A stretch of 64,000 nucleotides of DNA, taken from assembly GCA_965222225.1 (NCBI GenBank), contig CBDCTK010000002.1:4384001-4448000 (forward strand). The letters run 5' to 3'. Both the position numbers and the translations under genes were made by a program. Position 1 is the first letter of the stretch. Each line of letters opens with the position of its first letter. Of this stretch, positions 7,178 to 44,248 are shown piece after piece. Source of the stretch: Candidatus Poribacteria bacterium (GTDB lineage: Bacteria; Poribacteria; WGA-4E; JAJDTR01). The notes under the pieces were generated by a model that was not told the DNA's origin, ran no database searches, and saw nothing but the letters and a program-made list of their open reading frames with translations.

Positions 7178-7725
7178 GCAGATGTTTCCGTGCTCAAGTC
7201 TGCGGTTAAGAATCCTCGAAATCTGAAGTCGACATTAATTATTAACTGGTAACAGGAAATCGGGATAGTTTATGTGTTACGTCTGTTCCGTTGACCTATC
7301 AGTTGATATGTCTTGCCTCACGGAAGAAGCGTATCTTGACATTATTGGGTTTCCGTGGAAGCGCCCACCTATTTCTGAATCTTCCCCTCAAAAAATTCAT
7401 GAAGACTATATTGCTAAGCGCCCGCTTAAATAATCGGTAGTAATGTTATTGGGACTTAGTAGTTAACTGCTTTTTGGTCGATTTGCTTGCTTTTCTCTTC
7501 TTAATGTACAATCATTTTAGACAGTGTTCGGAATCTTGATTCACACTAAAATACATCTCTATAAGAGAGAAATGGAGGCATATCATGTTGACCAAGCGTT
7601 TGTACATGCTCGCGGGAGCATTGCGGGTTATCTGCGGGATTTTAATTTCCAACACTATGGGATTTTCAGCACACCATGATGTTGTCGTTGACAGAATATA
7701 CCGATAGCCAAACAATTCATGTGGC

Positions 7726-8580
7726 TCAGGTGAAGCATTCATCAAAAAATCTTATGAAAATCTCATCATCTTTTCTGCGATTATATTTCCAGCAAGACTC
7801 CATGATATACAGTGGCAGCCACTTCTTGCTGTAGTGATGATGCGTTCCGTAGAATGACCTCTTGACACAAGCCCAAAACGACTCGATGGTGTTGGTGTGA
7901 GTTACGCCGTCCTCAGAAACATATCTCTCTTGGTGATGGATAACATGTCTTTCGATATCTTCGTCCAGACTATTGTAAGAGCGAAATTCATCAGTCATAA
8001 GAATAGACTCATCGGGTGAGACATTGCTAAGGATGAATTCTCTGATATTTTCACCAGATAGAACCTTCATGAATTTAGCAACCACCCGACCGCCTCTCTC
8101 GACTACGCCGATGACGGGAGATTTATTTGTGCCTCTACCTCTCTTAGATTTTGCTCTGGGTTTGCCGCCGACATAGGTTTCGTCCGCTTCAACTATCCCT
8201 TTCAGCAATTCATCACTATCACTCATTTTCTCACGGAGGCGCATTGCCATATACCAAGCGGACTTTTGATTCATGTCCAAGTCACGAGCAAGCTGACAAC
8301 TCGATATGCTTTTCTTGGCATTGGAAAGAATTGAGATAGCCAAAAACCATTTCTGGAGAGGTATCTTGGTACCATGGAAGATGGTTCCTGCTGTAGCCGA
8401 AAAGCTAGATTCACAATCGTAGCAATTCCAACCAGTAGTAATGTCGTTTTTGTTCTTGCGTCCAACTTTTTCACTGCCACAGTGGATACAGCAAACACCG
8501 TCCTTCCAACGTTTTTCCTCTATAAATCTGAGACAAGATTCTTGATTTGGAAACTCTTTCATAAGATTCAAAATGTCCAT
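7726..8580 (-). CDS. IS1595-family (ISXO2-like) DDE transposase
   Basis: N-terminal zinc ribbon (CIHCGS...CYDC), GTIFHGTKIPL, VEADETYVGG, MTDE, HTNTIESFW. Confidence 0.92.
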   Translation of the reverse strand: MDILNLMKEFPNQESCLRFIEEKRWKDGVCCIHCGSEKVGRKNKNDITTGWNCYDCESSFSATAGTIFHGTKIPLQKWFLAISILSNAKKSISSCQLARDLDMNQKSAWYMAMRLREKMSDSDELLKGIVEADETYVGGKPRAKSKRGRGTNKSPVIGVVERGGRVVAKFMKVLSGENIREFILSNVSPDESILMTDEFRSYNSLDEDIERHVIHHQERYVSEDGVTHTNTIESFWACVKRSFYGTHHHYSKKWLPLYIMESCWKYNRRKDDEIFIRFFDECFT

Positions 8581-8764
8581 AGCAAACTCCTACGAGAAGA
8601 ATAGTCACTATGGACATCTACGTGTGACGAAAAGATTTACGACAGGGTACCAAGTTTTATGTTTGTCGTCAGTCTAAAAGCTACAAGCTACTAATTCCGA
8701 TGTTATTACCGGTGGTTTGAGGGTGGGCGTTTTTATGTTTTTTCAGTCGCCTCCGATTTACCTA

Positions 8765-35446: not shown

Positions 35447-36022
35447 ATGTCCGATAATACCACCAATTCAATCGTCGAAAATTATAAGGGCATACTGCAA
35501 GAATACTGTCATGTGAGGAATCTCGGTGATCCGTCGTACGAGGTTACGCAATTCGGAAGCCCGAACGAGCCGCGTTGGGGTGTGGAGGTCAAATACGGTC
35601 AAGCACGGCATAGTACGCCAGAACCGCTGTGCGGCTCCAAACGTCTCGCGGAGCAGATTGCGGCGAAGCAGGTGCTTGAGATTTTAGAATCACGTCAAGA
35701 GGCGTTCTTGGCGGGAAAGCCGCTAGAAAATAACTCGTCGGCTGCGGCAGCATTCAAGTCTGAGGCGCCCTCCATCCCGGTGGAGGAGGCGGATCTGCCT
35801 CCCATTGATGCGCCGGTTGAACTCGTTGCAACGGCGCTAAACGTGGCAAGTCAGCGTTTGGCTGGCAGTTCGCGACGCAGTGGAAAATACCGCGAATCCT
35901 CGGATTCAAAAAGAGATAATGAAATCTACGCTCGAAACTTGGCGGAACTAACGGTGCAAATCGTTCGGGAACTCATCACTGCTGCCGAATCAAATAACGT
36001 TAGATTTATATCCAAATCGTAG
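35447..36022 (+). CDS. Double-stranded RNA-binding motif (dsRBD) protein
   Basis: NYKGILQEYC...PSYEV...GSPNEP.W.VEV...GSKRLAEQIAAKQVL. Confidence 0.75.
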   Translation: MSDNTTNSIVENYKGILQEYCHVRNLGDPSYEVTQFGSPNEPRWGVEVKYGQARHSTPEPLCGSKRLAEQIAAKQVLEILESRQEAFLAGKPLENNSSAAAAFKSEAPSIPVEEADLPPIDAPVELVATALNVASQRLAGSSRRSGKYRESSDSKRDNEIYARNLAELTVQIVRELITAAESNNVRFISKS

Positions 36023-36028
36023 GGTGGG

Positions 36029-36134
36029 ATCAAAGGAATGAATAATGAACAGGATTTACTATCGCCTTGGGATCTCTATCGCGGTCGTTATTCACTCCCC
36101 TGATCTATCCGCTCAGTTGATCGATAAAGATCCT
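36029..36134. repeat. Three-level nested 36-bp units inside a GTAGGGTGGG..GCCCACC REP
   Basis: Outer reverse unit 36029-36134, middle forward unit 36051-36121, inner intact unit 36069-36104. An intact host REP lies at 44172-44192. Confidence 0.85.
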
Positions 36135-36247
36135 TGGCCCACCAGCCTTTCGGACTTCGTTGCCTTTGTAGGGTGCGCATCGCGCACCAGCCTTTTGTCC
36201 TCAATAATCCCTAATGGGCTAATCACCCTGTCCTCGATCCTCTCTTC

Positions 36248-36952
36248 ATGAACAACCCGACCCTCCCATCGGACCGAATCTCCAAGATAAAACATCGCTT
36301 GCGTCAATCTCGTTTTCTCTCAATCTTCATGGGGTGCCCCTACCCGGCGCCGCGCTGGGAGAAAGCCGTAAAGAAGGTCTTGCGCGATCTCGGTCAGGAA
36401 GCGAAAATCCTAGATCTCGGGTCGGGGCTTGATCGACGCACACCCAACACTATCAACCTCGAAATCGAAGCCACGCCGAATGTGGATGTCGTCGGCGACG
36501 GGCATTGCATTCCCTTCAAGGACGCGGTTTTCGACGCCGTCATCTCGGAAGCGGTTCTTGAGCATGTGCAAGATCCGAAACGGGTTGCCTCGGAAATGCA
36601 TCGCGTTCTGAAACCGGGCGGGTACGTTTGCGCCGCGGTGCCGTTCTTGCAAGGCTTCCACGCATCGCCGCACGATTATCAACGCTACACCGTTCCCGGA
36701 TTCAATCATCTTTTTTCGGCGTTTACGCGGATTGAGGGGGGAGCGTGTGCGGGACCGACGACGTCGTTGCACTGGATTTTCCGGGAGTATGTGGGGTTGC
36801 TCTTTTCCTTTGGAAATCTGCTTTTGGCAAAACTGATTTCGCTAGTCGTGGGGTGGATTACGTTTCCGGCGGTGTGGTTGGATTATCTTCTGATGCGAAA
36901 TAGACATGCGCATATTTTGGCGTCGGCGGTGTATTTTATTGGTAAGAAGTGA
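36248..36952 (+). CDS. Class I SAM-dependent methyltransferase (type 11-like)
   Basis: ILDLGSG, PFKDAVFDAV, VLEHV.DP, RVLKPGG. Confidence 0.9.
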   Translation: MNNPTLPSDRISKIKHRLRQSRFLSIFMGCPYPAPRWEKAVKKVLRDLGQEAKILDLGSGLDRRTPNTINLEIEATPNVDVVGDGHCIPFKDAVFDAVISEAVLEHVQDPKRVASEMHRVLKPGGYVCAAVPFLQGFHASPHDYQRYTVPGFNHLFSAFTRIEGGACAGPTTSLHWIFREYVGLLFSFGNLLLAKLISLVVGWITFPAVWLDYLLMRNRHAHILASAVYFIGKK

Positions 36953-36977
36953 GAGCGGTTAGGGCGATGGAAGAGAT

Positions 36978-37058
36978 TGTCTGAATCGCGGATTAAGGGG
37001 ATTACGCGGATTAGGGATCTCTATCGCACTCATTATCCATTCGCTTGATCGGATTAAA
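36978..37058 (+). repeat. (CGCGGATTA)n-type repeat carrying a 36-bp unit at 37014-37049
   Basis: Near-identical direct copy at about 41094-41173 and a related host near 43424-43460. Confidence 0.8.
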
Positions 37059-37104
37059 GACTAGTCCTACTTTGTAACGGGAATTTAACCTGTGAAATCC
37101 TTTA

Positions 37105-37307
37105 GAACCTGTTTGAAAAGTACAGTTTGTAGGGTGCGCACTGCGCACCAGCCTCTAAAAGCCCCAGAGGGGATCAGGCGAACGATCAACTGAGTGGATA
37201 ACGAAGGCGATAGAAGATCCCATAGTGAGTGCGATAGAGATCCCACAAGTATATGACAACTCAAATGTCAAAAAGTGGATTTACCACCTAATTATTCAAG
37301 CAAGTTC
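37105..37307. mobile_element. MITE (inverted homologue of 2227-2455) with a two-level nested 36-bp unit at 37173-37244
   Basis: GAACCTGTTTGAA...TTCAAGCAAGTTC ends; internal sequence matches the 2227 copy in reverse complement. Confidence 0.75.
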
Positions 37308-37368
37308 TAAGTTGGGTTTCACTGGGTTCCACCCAACCTACGGGCTACAAAAAACCGGAGAATAGAAC

Positions 37369-40300: not shown

Positions 40301-41099
40301 TGGAAAAGCACTCAAAGACTGGGATATAAACATCCATTATGGGATAAAAACAGGTTGCAATGAAGCATTCATCATAAATGAAGCAAAGCGTGAAGAACTG
40401 ATTGCACAGGACCCAAGGTCAGTCGAAATCATCAAGCCATTTCTGCGCGGCCGAGACATCAAACGCTATCATGTTCAATGGGCAGGCTTGTACATGTTGG
40501 CAACCCAATACAATCTGGATATTCCAAAAAAGTATCCCGCTATCTACAATCACCTCAAAACCGTAGGAGAACAGATAGAATCTGGAAGAATAAAGGCAAA
40601 AGGTAAAGGGTTATTCAATAGGGACGACCAAGGCGAGAACTGGTGGAATCTCAGAGCTTGTGCTTACTACGCCGAATTTGAAGAAGAGAAGGTTGTTTAT
40701 CCCGAAACAACTCTCGCTGCTAACTTTTTCTACGATGAAGAGCGACATTTCATAGAGAAAACCTGTTTTATGATAACTGGTAGCGATTTAAAAATCTTAG
40801 TGGGATTGTTGAGTTCCACGCTATTGACATTTGTATACAGACAATACTACGGTGGTACTGTGCTCGGCAATAAGGGATATCAATACAACAAACATGCCCT
40901 AGAAGAGCTCCCGGTTATTGAGATTTCTGCTACAGAACAGCGTTCTTTTATCTCTTTAGTCGATCAGATTCTCGACGCCAAACGTGCCGATTCGGACGCC
41001 GATGTATCCGAACTTGAAAGTGACATTGACCAGGTGGTATACTCGTTGTACAATCTGACTGCTGAAGAAATTGCTATTGTGGAGGAAAACACGGTCTGA
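37369..41099 (+). pseudogene. Type IIG (Eco57I-like) restriction-modification enzyme / N6-adenine MTase, split by a 1-bp frameshift near 40066 (ORFs 37369-40089 and 40107-41099)
   Basis: FINGGLF, LLGKVFENLL, TGSYYTP, ILDPAVGSGAF, GNPPY. Restoring one base in ATGGGCCGGATG gives MGPDVFDATVDANILLL running into the TaqI-like target-recognition ORF. Confidence 0.85.
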
Positions 41100-41129
41100 A
41101 TCACGGATTACACGGATTACGCGGATTAG

Positions 41130-41165
41130 GGGATCTCTATCGCACTCATTATCCATTCGCTTGAC
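41130..41165 (+). repeat. 36-bp dispersed hairpin unit
   Basis: GGGATCTCTATCGCACTCATTATCCATTCGCTTGAC, one base different from 37014-37049. Confidence 0.85.
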
Positions 41166-41251
41166 CGGATTAAACGCAAGGCACTCCGCAACCTGGATTC
41201 GATCCGTGAATCAGAAGATGCCCGATAATTTTCCATTGTGAAGAAAAGAGA

Positions 41252-43369
41252 ATGAACAAACCTCTAAAAGGTTTCATCACCTATTCGCATAAAGACGAAC
41301 AGAAAAGGAAAAAATTGCGGACGTGTCTTGCTGTAATGGAGCGGGCAGGCGAGGTGACAATTCGCGACGATAGTGACATCAACCCGGGCGGCAAAGCGCG
41401 TCAGGAAGACATTCTTAAAGAAGTTGCTGATTCGGATATTCTGCTTTATCTCGTTTCTACTGATAGCCTTGCATCTGGAAACTGTAACAGAGAGTTGACC
41501 GAGGCAGTGAGAGCCAACAGACGTGTTATCCCCATCATCCTTGAGAGTTGTGATTGGCTGAATGACCGACTCCACGGCTTCGGAGCTCTTCCGGACAAAG
41601 GCAAAGCCATAAACAAATGGAAACCTCAGAGTGATGGATGGCAGAATGTAGTGGATGGTATTCGAGAAGTTATTGAAGAAATGCAAGCTCAAGCGGATAC
41701 ATCATCCGGGACATCTGAAGAAGAACTACAGGCTAAATTGGCACTCAGATACGGTAACGACTTAATGATGATTGGACAAACCGACAGAGCAATAGAAAGC
41801 TATTCGCACGCAATTGAAATTGACCGAAATTATGCCGAGGCTTATAACAATCGCGGGGTTGCATACCAGAAAAAGGGCGACTTTAACCGCGCCATTACAG
41901 ATTTTACCAAAGTGATAGAGCTTAAACCCAATGATGCCGTAGCCTATACCAATCGCGGGGGCATTTATGGGGACACAGGTGATTATGACCGTGCCATCGC
42001 AGATGTTAATACCGCAATAAAACTCAAACCCAATTATGCCGGAGCGTATAATAATCGCGGGTTAGTTTATAATAATAAAGGAGATTTTAACCGTGCCATT
42101 GAGGATTATACGACGGCGATACAACTCGACCCGCATCATGCAATAGCCTATTGTAATCGTGGCATAGCTTACAACAGCAAAAATGAGTATGACCACGCCA
42201 TCAAAGACTTTAACGTGGCCATAGAACTCAAGCCAAACCTTGCCAACGCCTATTGCAATCGTGGCGGTGCTCACATTCATAAGGGGGATTATAACCGCGC
42301 CGTCGGCGACTTGGACACAGCAATAGACCTGAACCCCAATCTTGCAGAAGCCTATGCGGATCGTGGCGGTGCATACATTCATAAAGGGGATTATGACCGC
42401 GCCATCGCTGACCTGAACACGGCGATAGACTTGAAACCCGATAACACCGAAGCCTTTACCAATCGAGGCCTAGCCTTAATTCATGCAGGGGATTATGACT
42501 GTGCCATCGGCGACTTGAACACGGCAATAGGCTTGAAACCAGATCATGCCAGTGCTTATAACAATCGTGGACTAGCTTACGTTCATAAAGGCAATTTGAA
42601 CCGCGCCATCGTGGATTTTAACGTGGCGATAGACCTGAAATCTGATTTTGGCGAAGCCTATAACAATCGTGGAAGTGCTTACATTCATGAAGGGGATTAT
42701 GACCGCGCCGTCGACGACTTCAATGCGGCGATAGACCTGAAATCTAATGATGCCGGAGCCTATACTAATCGTGGTATTGCACAGGCCAAAAAAGGGAATC
42801 TTAATCTAGCCATTGGAGATTTTAATACAGCGATACAACTCAATCCCAATGATGCCATGGCCTATTCTAATCGCGGACAGACCTACAGTGATATAGGTGA
42901 TTATGATCGTGCTATCATAGACTTTGGCGCAGCGATACAATTGGACCCCCACAATGCCATCACCTACTACAATTGTGGTATCGCTTATAACAACAACGGA
43001 GAATACGAACACGCCATCGCAAACTTTGACATGGCCGTAAAGCGGAATCCCAATTTTGCAAACGCCTATCATCTTCGGGGTATTGCCTACAGAAACCAAA
43101 GGAAATTTAGCCCTGCCATAGCAGACTTCAGCAATGCGATTCAACTCAATCCGAATTTGCCGGGAGCCTATTGTAATCGCGGCGAGGCGCGGTTGCACCT
43201 ACGTGAATGGGAGAAAGCGAAATCAGACTTAATGGTTGCAAAGGATAAAGGCGTAGATATCATTGCTCCCTTTCGTATTTGCTACAAAGGCGTTGAGGAT
43301 TTTGAGCAGAAGAATAACGTGAAATTACCGGAAGACATTGTTGCGATGCTTACGCCACCGGCAGGTTGA
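41252..43369 (+). CDS. TIR domain plus TPR repeat protein
   Basis: N-terminal FITYSHKD...LYLVSTDSLASGNCNREL...VIPIIL (TIR_2) followed by about 15 regular AYNNRG TPR units. Confidence 0.9.
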   Translation: MNKPLKGFITYSHKDEQKRKKLRTCLAVMERAGEVTIRDDSDINPGGKARQEDILKEVADSDILLYLVSTDSLASGNCNRELTEAVRANRRVIPIILESCDWLNDRLHGFGALPDKGKAINKWKPQSDGWQNVVDGIREVIEEMQAQADTSSGTSEEELQAKLALRYGNDLMMIGQTDRAIESYSHAIEIDRNYAEAYNNRGVAYQKKGDFNRAITDFTKVIELKPNDAVAYTNRGGIYGDTGDYDRAIADVNTAIKLKPNYAGAYNNRGLVYNNKGDFNRAIEDYTTAIQLDPHHAIAYCNRGIAYNSKNEYDHAIKDFNVAIELKPNLANAYCNRGGAHIHKGDYNRAVGDLDTAIDLNPNLAEAYADRGGAYIHKGDYDRAIADLNTAIDLKPDNTEAFTNRGLALIHAGDYDCAIGDLNTAIGLKPDHASAYNNRGLAYVHKGNLNRAIVDFNVAIDLKSDFGEAYNNRGSAYIHEGDYDRAVDDFNAAIDLKSNDAGAYTNRGIAQAKKGNLNLAIGDFNTAIQLNPNDAMAYSNRGQTYSDIGDYDRAIIDFGAAIQLDPHNAITYYNCGIAYNNNGEYEHAIANFDMAVKRNPNFANAYHLRGIAYRNQRKFSPAIADFSNAIQLNPNLPGAYCNRGEARLHLREWEKAKSDLMVAKDKGVDIIAPFRICYKGVEDFEQKNNVKLPEDIVAMLTPPAG

Positions 43370-43473
43370 GATTTGACAGACCGTTGCGCCTCCGAGGTAA
43401 TTGTGGAGGAAGGGATGGAAAACTGTCCGAATCACGGATTAAACAGAATACGCAGATTAGTGAATTTTTATCG

Positions 43474-43576
43474 ATCAACTGGGCGGATAGATCGAACGAG
43501 CGATTAGCGAGTGATCAACTGAGCGATTAATGAAGGCGATAGAGATCCCATAGAGATCTTAAGGCGATAATTCCCC
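43474..43576 (-). repeat. Three-level nested 36-bp units (reverse)
   Basis: Minus strand: GGGAATTATCGCCTT[AAGATCTCTAT[GGGATCTCTATCGCCTTCATTAATCGCTCAGTTGAT]CACTCGCTAATCGCTCGTTCGAT]CTATCCGCCCAGTTGAT. Confidence 0.8.
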
Positions 43577-44248
43577 CATAGCGCCTTCCGTTCGACAGTG
43601 TTTATCCCGCGCCCTTCCAAATCTGATTGTTGACAAAAAGGCATTATTTCGTCAAATTTCGTCAAGTTGTGTCGTGTTTTGTCACGTAACCTTCGTTAGA
43701 AGCATTCACTTGAATCCGAGTTTCTACTTCAAAACCCGCGATCTTTATCGCAAAATCTTTTCGAGTGCACACCGCCGCCAAGCGGCAGAATAAATCCACG
43801 GAGCGAATAGATTAGCCACTTGACCTATTCAATCGTTCGATCGGTCATTTTCCATACATACCGAGTCGTCTCGACATGTATCGCGGCGAAAACTCTCGGA
43901 ATGGAGATGGGTTCAATTTGGCAAATGTCAACACGCTCTAGTACCCTTGAACCGGCTAGGGGATCGATCCGGTTTCAGAGTGTTGTTCCGAGGTCCATGC
44001 ACTGCATACCGCCGAGAAACTAGTCCTGGAACGGGTTCTCCCTGTTTCCTGTGACGCTTCGTTTCTCGCGTCTACTCTGAAAACTCTGAAAATCACATGA
44101 CCGCAGCCGCGTTAGATGAAGTGTCAGATTGAGTAAACCGCGGACGAGCCCTCACATCAGGCACACTTGCAGTAGGGTGGGCACTGCCCACCATCAGCAA
44201 ACGCCCAATGGCTGCTCAAATTAACGACATCCCATAAAGGAAAAAAAC

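Follow-up and report, generated by a model that had tools for sequence, protein, structure and literature searches.

Nested units at the locus

In the genome of a sponge-symbiotic Candidatus Poribacteria bacterium (G000; 5.70 Mb, 50% GC), there is a DNA repeat of 36-37 nucleotides (nt), hereafter the unit, which lies inserted in repetitive extragenic palindromic (REP) sequences and in copies of itself. The window analysed here is the 64,000-nt stretch C2:4384001-4448000 of this genome. The unit is a real, mobile element resembling the SDR repeats of Nostocaceae, in a phylum new for such elements, and its insertion rule is sharply defined. Positions in the unit are numbered r1-r37 on the R strand, the structured strand, which is the reverse of the strand that a first-pass annotation of the window called forward; the reference copy is 37014-37050. 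The features of the window that carry the argument are the following.

36019-36027 (+): left piece of a GTAG-tagged REP (REP-A, G variant), GTAGGGTGG; read from the sequence
36028-36052 (+): outer unit, r1-r25; read from the sequence, with a partial nhmmer match at 36028-36048
36053-36068 (-): one part of the middle unit, its R strand opposite to that of the outer unit; a rare class (6 of 120 nests)
36069-36105 (-): intact inner unit of 37 nt, nhmmer E 6e-10, lying in the middle unit at r17/r21 (C2:4420069)
36106-36122 (-): remaining part of the middle unit; sequence and nhmmer
36123-36134 (+): right part of the outer unit, GATAAAGATCCT; sequence
36135-36143 (+): right arm of the interrupted REP-A, TGGCCCACC; sequence
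36168-36188 (+): intact REP-A, C variant; sequence
36973-37013 (+): 9-mer array GTCTGAATCGCGGATTA(nnCGGATTA)n, a host; the orthologous place is empty in G002 and G003
37014-37050 (-): intact unit within the 9-mer array, nhmmer E 1e-12
37129-37149 (+): intact REP-A; sequence
37162-37171 (+): left part of a D-type repeat (CCCCAGAGGG..ACAAGT), host of the two-level nest; sequence
37172-37244 (+): two-level nest, with outer unit 37172-37183 + 37222-37244 and inner unit 37184-37221; sequence and nhmmer
41130-41166 (-): unit in a second 9-mer array (41088-41129); nhmmer and sequence
43473-43577 (+): three-level nest, all units co-oriented, in pieces of 17+23+37+11+17 nt; sequence and nhmmer
43473-43489 + 43561-43577 (+): outer unit of this nest, class r17/r21
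43490-43512 + 43550-43560 (+): middle unit of this nest, class r23/r27
43513-43549 (+): inner unit of this nest
44172-44192 (+): intact REP-A, G variant GTAGGGTGGGCACTGCCCACC, the empty host form; sequence

By direct reading of the sequence and by nhmmer, the three nests (36019-36143, 37172-37244 and 43473-43577) parse as the first-pass annotation described them, and the intact host that it had placed at 44172-44192 is read there. Insertion into REPs and into the unit's own copies, which it had proposed from these cases, extends genome-wide to several REP families and to 120 nests.

The unit is an abundant repeat with a single hairpin

An iterated nhmmer search of G000 collected the unit family, with 1,451 matches at E ≤ 1, 940 at E ≤ 1e-4, and 1,030 at E ≤ 1e-3; the last lie in 757 loci, 568 of which hold a single unit. 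The 696 intact copies, defined as ungapped and near-full, comprise 602 distinct sequences and give the R-strand consensus GATCAA-nn-GA-nn-GRATA-nn-GA-nn-GCGATAG-AGATCCC. The abundance of the pattern is far beyond chance: its 30-nt core (at most one mismatch) matches 826 times in G000, versus 0 for a reversed-pattern control. Units are mostly intergenic, with 40 of 1,027 falling within crude open reading frames (ORFs), and they account for about 3.5% of the non-coding DNA. In the 100-kb bin C2:1.5-1.6 Mb there are 66 matches. Rfam gives no match at its gathering threshold for the whole window or at E ≤ 1 for 35950-37350, and a search for a long master element with the ends of the unit found none, recovering instead an unrelated 1,252-nt insertion sequence.

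The R strand forms a hairpin with a GRATA loop, its stem consisting of four covarying pairs placed around two fixed G.A/A.G pairs; in the latter, the invariant GA dinucleotides oppose each other as tandem G.A pairs. Specifically, the mutual information of the four stem pairs is 0.40-1.11, and pairing holds in 93-96% of copies on the R strand but in only 67-93% on its complement, where A-C appears for what is G.U/G.T on R. In a set of 77 copies drawn from several genomes, the fraction of paired cells is 96%, versus 64.3% after shuffling (0 of 500 shuffles reach 96%) and 22-60% in slid controls; this set contains 111 double changes, and G.U occurs 18-20 times at two of the pairs. Covariation, together with G.U on the R strand only, indicates that one strand is under structural constraint.

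The hairpin occupies just 17 of the 37 nt, and there is one hairpin per unit. Unpaired sequence is conserved on both sides of the hairpin, GATCAA lying 5′ and GCGATAG with a genus-specific 7-nt tail 3′. Position 37 is C in 90% of copies; the C that the first-pass annotation saw after the terminal GAT is thus near-constant, as it had claimed, but is part of the unit itself. There is no terminal inverted repeat, the ends GATCAAGC and GGGATCTC (read inward) having just GATC in common. Nor is there a 5′ GTAG tag: the unit starts with GATCAA, its ATAG sits 3′ of the hairpin, and the GTAG upstream of 180 of the 696 copies belongs to host REPs, mostly 4-5 nt off. Neighbouring units within 300 nt are direct in 203 cases and inverted in 43. 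Head-to-tail arrays of a rolling-circle kind were looked for and rejected, with 0 cases at the 7-nt tail spacing. One tandem array on G000:C2 consists of at least six units with differing stems and an 8-nt TCTTGTAG spacer, which brings GTAG immediately before each GATCAA.

Insertion follows a G and replaces a few target nucleotides

Comparison of empty and filled REP-A sites across the genome reveals the insertion rule. Empty sites span 22 nt (198 cases), while singly filled sites span mostly 56 nt (24 cases; 55 nt in 4 and 57 nt in 7), a net gain of 34 nt for a 37-nt unit, so that the unit replaces GCA in the left arm, between GTAGGGTGS and CTGC. Junctions of the same kind are found in the following targets.

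REP-A left arm: GCA replaced; 49 intact units, 198 empty REP-A sites
REP-A right arm: GC replaced; 19 filled
REP-C, between GTAGGCGGG and CTTGCCCC: GCAT replaced; 15 empty, 16-19 filled
D repeats, between CCCCAGCGGG and ACAGGT: GCG replaced; 13 empty, 24-55 filled
REP-E, between GTAGGAGC and TCTCC: GA replaced; 48 empty, 3-18 filled
The unit itself, r24-26: GCG replaced; 47 nests
The unit itself, r18-20: GYG replaced; 18 nests
9-mer arrays (CGGATTAnn): 1-3 nt replaced; at least 17 of 42 arrays filled

In each case, the 37 nt take the place of 2-4 target nt, the first of which is G. Because all replaced stretches begin with G, the simplest description is that 36 nt (ATCAA...CCC) are placed after a G with the loss of 1-3 nt, which is exactly the loss that the first-pass annotation had reported. 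The junction is constant for each target type, although the stems and the 3′ tails (CCC, CCT, CTT, CTC) of the units vary. GCG/GCA-type triplets are favoured as targets, whether in five REP-like families, in 9-mer arrays or at two places in the unit itself, and self-targeting yields nests up to three levels deep. The absence of a target duplication, which had been claimed for the window, holds genome-wide: direct repeats of 2-8 nt in the flanks, at all end offsets from -2 to +2, barely exceed those of shuffled flanks, and the best signal, at k=4, is 4.5% versus 1.1%.

The proposed preference for hairpin-forming DNA holds in part. Relative to the share of non-coding DNA that these repeats occupy, insertions are enriched about 28-fold in REP-A and 5-11-fold in the unit's own family, figures that count non-independent copies; however, the 9-mer arrays, which are not palindromic, are also used. 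At 196 unclassified sites, the joined flanks form stems of at least 5 bp in 7%, versus 3% for random intergenic DNA, and the minimum free energy is -6.3 versus -5.7 (p 0.01-0.04), so palindromicity is weakly raised over random intergenic DNA. A sequence rule, G followed by C or R in a GC-rich context, accounts for the sites no less well than structure. Restriction and ligation at GATC was considered as a route and rejected: REP-A has no GATC, the REP-E junction misfits, insertion is orientation-specific, and the units of a second genus (g4, below) lack the second GATC.

The same REP-A position is used by another repeat. Specifically, a second 36-nt family, type B (consensus GATCGGCGATCATCAAATCGCCGATTTCCCCTCTTA; at least 40 copies, for example at G000:C2 2645383 (-) and 5167937 (+)), starts with GATC, is otherwise unrelated to the unit in sequence, and has its own covarying 9-bp hairpin. 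It occupies exactly the REP-A position of the main unit, which points to shared machinery.

Independent insertions and amplified composites

Both host sides are themselves recognised as unit in 120 of the 696 intact copies, which are the nests. At five variable positions, host and insert are identical in 0 of 102 pairs, with a mean of 3.31 differences versus 2.90 in shuffled pairs; since host and insert always differ, the nests are not local duplications, and local duplication is rejected as their origin. Clustering by sequence resolves the 120 nests into 113 groups, and clustering by flanks resolves the 696 intact copies into 511, 478 of which are singletons. These counts, together with orthologous sites that are filled in one species and empty in another, agree with the serial independent insertions that the first-pass annotation had proposed, except that some copies were amplified as composites.

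In particular, 35 of the 49 REP-A left-arm copies fall in one cluster and carry one near-identical unit subfamily. The D family is mostly filled, its filled copies have a marker T in common, and composites of REP-A and D recur at 90-98% identity in all genomes of genus g1. The REP-A subfamily cluster, the filled D family and the recurring composites together indicate that part of the spread is hitch-hiking, and the 35-copy REP-A cluster and the D family look to have been amplified as composites.

Unit orientation tracks GC skew

Insertion is strand-specific. Nests are co-oriented in 114 of 120 cases and opposite in 6, and every filled REP-A has the R strand of its unit on the GTAG strand. Where GC skew is positive, the non-structured strand (forward in the first-pass annotation) is on + in 304 units and on - in 166; where it is negative, the numbers are 137 and 380. 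This association (chi2 144) holds in every gene-orientation context, and the ratio of orientations reaches 1:32 in 100-kb bins. Empty REP-A copies show the same skew polarity, at 69:19 and 48:22. Unit orientation therefore tracks local GC skew, as REPs do, and not gene direction. The loss of 1-3 target nt, the skew-linked polarity and the co-orientation with REPs are all features seen here for the unit.

The unit is concentrated in two genera and differs between species

We counted copies in 176 genomes with the 30-nt core pattern at no more than one mismatch. All 10 genomes of genus g1 carry the unit, with 529-1,216 matches, and so do all 4 of genus g4, with 184-205; the g4 unit has the same core, the tail TCTTNNC, and no second GATC. 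One g6 genome has 19 matches and six more genomes have 1-4, while the remaining 155 of the 176 have none; 3 copies occur in the sister genus g2, and most g6 genomes lack the unit. Among the matches listed, all 80 unit-carrying records are Candidatus Poribacteria.

In five orthologous regions of 13-18 kb, the unit content differs in every intergenic region. The 9-mer array that holds the unit at 37014-37050 has an empty orthologue in both G002 and G003. At the first locus (36019-36143), G005 has the same three-level nest, about 94% identical, between flanking genes that are 80-88% identical. In the same place, and with the orthology of individual REPs uncertain, an empty REP is seen in G001, G003 and G006 and a REP filled with one unit in G007; G002 and G004 lack an intact REP. 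The contigs of public short-read data (Logan) break at the units, and neither filled and empty alleles nor circle junctions were found in these contigs; those from RNA libraries gave no sign of unit transcripts either way.

A 247-residue RAYT-like protein (L017, L018) is 99% identical between G000 and G005, versus about 80-88% for flanking housekeeping genes. On sequence grounds, this suggests a recent transfer of the RAYT-like gene between the two species.

Candidate enzymes

There are five Y1 loci in G000, among them one intact RAYT-like gene. The other four are the following.

G000:C2:3078872-3082216: intact IS200-type Y1 gene (L011), bracketed by inverted D repeats (CCCCAGCGGGGCGACAGGT), one of which already carries a unit
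G000:C2:3087437-3090769: RAYT-like pseudogene broken by TAG (L013), flanked by REP-E (GTAGGAGCGATCTCC-type REPs)
G000:C2:3726239-3729466: RAYT-like gene split over two overlapping frames (L014), flanked by its own GTAGTAGGCAYAC..GTRTGCC REPs
L015: RAYT remnant, flanked by inverted units

Because L013 and L014 are each flanked by their own REP type, several REP-RAYT systems lie side by side in G000. The RAYT loci that are intact are flanked by REP types other than the unit. All 14 unit-rich genomes sampled have Y1 genes. The sole reverse transcriptase match in G000 is a 670-residue AbiA-family abortive-infection reverse transcriptase (L016; G000:C2:4499047-4502589), about 52 kb past the end of the window, and this search returned no group II intron or retron reverse transcriptase in the genome. 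A DUF559/Vsr-like nuclease was considered as the enzyme and rejected, as it is a single gene in G000 with no units nearby.

Comparison with known systems

The closest known systems are the SDR repeats of Nostocaceae. Elhai et al. reportedly described in 2008 SDR1-8 of Nostoc punctiforme and relatives, of 21-27 nt, which are said to form hairpins with compensatory changes, to nest in copies of themselves, and to sit in heptamer tandem repeats, HIP1 and minitransposons. The unit likewise is a very small, dispersed, mostly intergenic repeat whose hairpin shows compensatory changes, nests in itself (120 nests here), uses tandem repeats as hosts (9-mer CGGATTA arrays here in place of the heptamers reported for SDRs), and inserts precisely into other short repeats, the left junction in REPs reading G^ATC after the target G. 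Both appear confined to a narrow clade and have no enzyme linked to them; we know of none for the SDRs. The unit differs in its length (36-37 versus 21-27 nt) and in its host, Candidatus Poribacteria rather than Nostocaceae, and the likeness described here is one of features; furthermore, HIP1 is not enriched in the unit's genome (120 copies in G000, no excess). According to three papers (PMC4390886, PMC13756078, PMC5861425), SDR5 of Nostocaceae is 21 nt long and inserted precisely between nt 3 and 4 of GCGATCGC (GCG^ATCGC), SDRs are described as not found outside Nostocaceae, and the function of SDR5 is still called unknown in citing literature to 2026. A narrow literature search (Poribacteria with 'repetitive extragenic palindromic') found no earlier description of the unit family.

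REP/REPIN sequences, which go with RAYT (Y1/HUH) transposases and include the GTAG-tagged superfamily (PMC3733652, PMC3116915), resemble the unit: they too are short hairpin repeats of intergenic DNA, have features specific to one strand, and covary in stems that admit G.T. Moreover, G000 has RAYT-like genes, two of them flanked by their own REP types, and the skew polarity of the unit equals that of REP-A. In contrast to REPs, the unit has no 5′ GTAG tag, has a hairpin of 17 of its 37 nt, and inserts into REPs; unlike in REPINs, direct neighbours (203) outnumber inverted ones (43). None of the RAYT genes has the unit specifically at its flanks or matches it in distribution, although units do flank the remnant L015. 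The unit also differs from a DDE-type MITE in having neither terminal inverted repeats nor a target-site duplication; together with strand specificity (114 versus 6), a reproducible junction and the small loss, this bears out the non-DDE style of insertion that the first-pass annotation had inferred. Insertion sequences that target REPs are full-length, transposase-encoding elements; they too use REPs as targets and are mobile DNA within mobile DNA, but the unit is 36 nt long, gene-less, and makes no target duplication. IS1397 and other such elements are cited in PMC3116915.

Proposed mechanism and alternative explanations

We consider, with a probability of about 0.6, that the unit is a very small, non-autonomous DNA element of the SDR kind, mobile in two Candidatus Poribacteria genera, and that it moves in the following way. 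A single-stranded intermediate would be recognised through its hairpin, and an enzyme acting in trans would join it into single-stranded DNA at the replication fork; the most plausible enzyme is an HUH/Y1 transposase of the RAYT or IS200 type, for which the five loci of G000 are candidates. Copies are pasted in one orientation, right after a target G (or with a G of their own), replacing the next 1-3 nt, and some also spread passively as cargo of REP or D-type composites.

Several points weigh against this mechanism, above all on the side of the enzyme. None of the five Y1 loci in G000 is co-distributed with the unit, and no enzyme is tied to it; the RAYT-like gene L012 is found in only 2-3 of 31 relatives, PF01797 (Y1) also occurs in 11 of 17 unit-free relatives, and the IS200-type gene is present in 102 of 176 genomes and not found (E ≤ 1e-20) in two g4 genomes with about 190 units each. 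The GC skew of G000 is weak and reverses repeatedly, which makes the link to replication one that we infer. The R strand is the C-rich strand, the leading-strand template, which is opposite to IS608. Elements of the IS200/IS605 group have two subterminal hairpins, are longer than 100 nt, and enter the target 3′ of a fixed sequence of four or five nucleotides, none of which is lost. The unit shares with them the lack of target duplication and of terminal inverted repeats, strand specificity, dependence on a hairpin and an orientation that appears tied to the replication strand, but it has one hairpin in 36 nt, loses 1-3 nt, has variable flanks, and carries its structured strand on the opposite replication strand. 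Finally, unit copy counts include composite-amplified copies that are not independent, so the p-values are overstated.

A broader reading, which we hold only tentatively, is that SDR-type elements form a wider class with a movement so far undescribed, in which a 36-nt strand with a single hairpin is pasted after a G, in place of a fixed 1-3 nt of target, and in a replication-coupled manner. The catalyst would be either an enzyme that belongs to no known transposase family or a REP-associated Y1 enzyme in an unrecognised cargo-exchange mode. If so, the unit and type B, with their common GATC start and REP position, would be substrates of one length-measuring machine. Copying through RNA, a route proposed for the cyanobacterial SDRs, appears unlikely. 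Here the transcript of the R strand would fold into a hairpin and be copied by target-primed reverse transcription at a nick in the target, and a second nick a few nt away would give the 1-3 nt loss. Wobble pairs allowed on one strand only, small site-specific target deletions without duplication that resemble R2-type target-primed insertion, and the position of units in intergenic DNA that may be transcribed all fit such a route; however, the sole reverse transcriptase gene of the genome is the AbiA-family defence gene, with no group II intron or retron enzyme found, orientation tracks GC skew and not transcription direction, and there is no A-tail. Nor did a population of solo copies with truncated ends stand out, an observation that is unquantified.

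That the unit is a host-selected functional motif, a protein-binding or replication-related hairpin polar like KOPS or Chi and spread by recombination, seems improbable to us. It would account for a hairpin kept by compensatory change in hundreds of copies, for a polarity that tracks GC skew, and for a three-level nest that is 94% identical between species whose flanking genes are 80-88% identical. Yet nesting destroys host hairpins, as would hardly be expected if each copy were under selection, the distribution is patchy (3 copies in g2, none in most of g6), and content differs at every orthologous intergenic region examined; as for the conserved nest, the 99%-identical RAYT-like gene of G000 and G005 makes a recent exchange possible, which could explain it. 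Slightly less probable again is a history of few true insertions, in which each host type was hit once, the composites spread by the mobility of the host repeats, and gene conversion swapped the interiors, so that identical junctions would reflect common descent. The identical junction for each host type, the 35 of 49 REP-A left-arm copies with near-identical units, the D family that is mostly filled (24-55 versus 13 empty) with its common marker T, and the REP-A and D composites at 90-98% identity across the genus speak for it. Against it stand 478 singleton flank contexts and 113 nest clusters, units and 3′ tails that differ right up to the junction, the occurrence of the family in unique DNA and in seven or more host contexts that are unrelated to one another, and the orthologous 9-mer array that is empty in two other species. 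An assembly artefact of repeats has a negligible probability. Short-read contigs do break within the nest 36019-36143, and none of them bridges it; but the same nest recurs in the independently assembled G005, the family is found in 14 genomes, many of them single chromosomes, and contigs from three other studies (X3, X4, X20) cover the nest 43473-43577 wholly or nearly. The nests are thus no product of assembly.

A mobile element of the SDR kind in Candidatus Poribacteria bears on the movement of the smallest known mobile DNA elements, which has been an open question since the Nostoc description in 2008. The unit adds a further system, independent of the first and in a different phylum, in which a genome carries about a thousand copies. 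Its copy number, junction rule and REP-matched polarity, the second family and the 14 related genomes make the mechanism testable by comparative genomics and by oligonucleotide biochemistry. The units are also relevant to annotation, as they interrupt REPs, fragment short-read assemblies, and fill a measurable part (about 3.5%) of non-coding DNA.

Other repeats in the window

The 1,252-nt insertion sequence recovered in the search for a master element is present in 46 copies that are 98-100% identical, with AT-rich target duplications of about 8 bp, and one copy lies at 7449-8699 of the window. It is an ordinary, recently active insertion sequence without relation to the unit. Between the second 9-mer array and the three-level nest, the ORF at 41252-43369 (+) contains eleven tandem copies of a 102-nt period at 41777-43182, which are 62-74% identical and correspond to protein repeats of about 34 residues.

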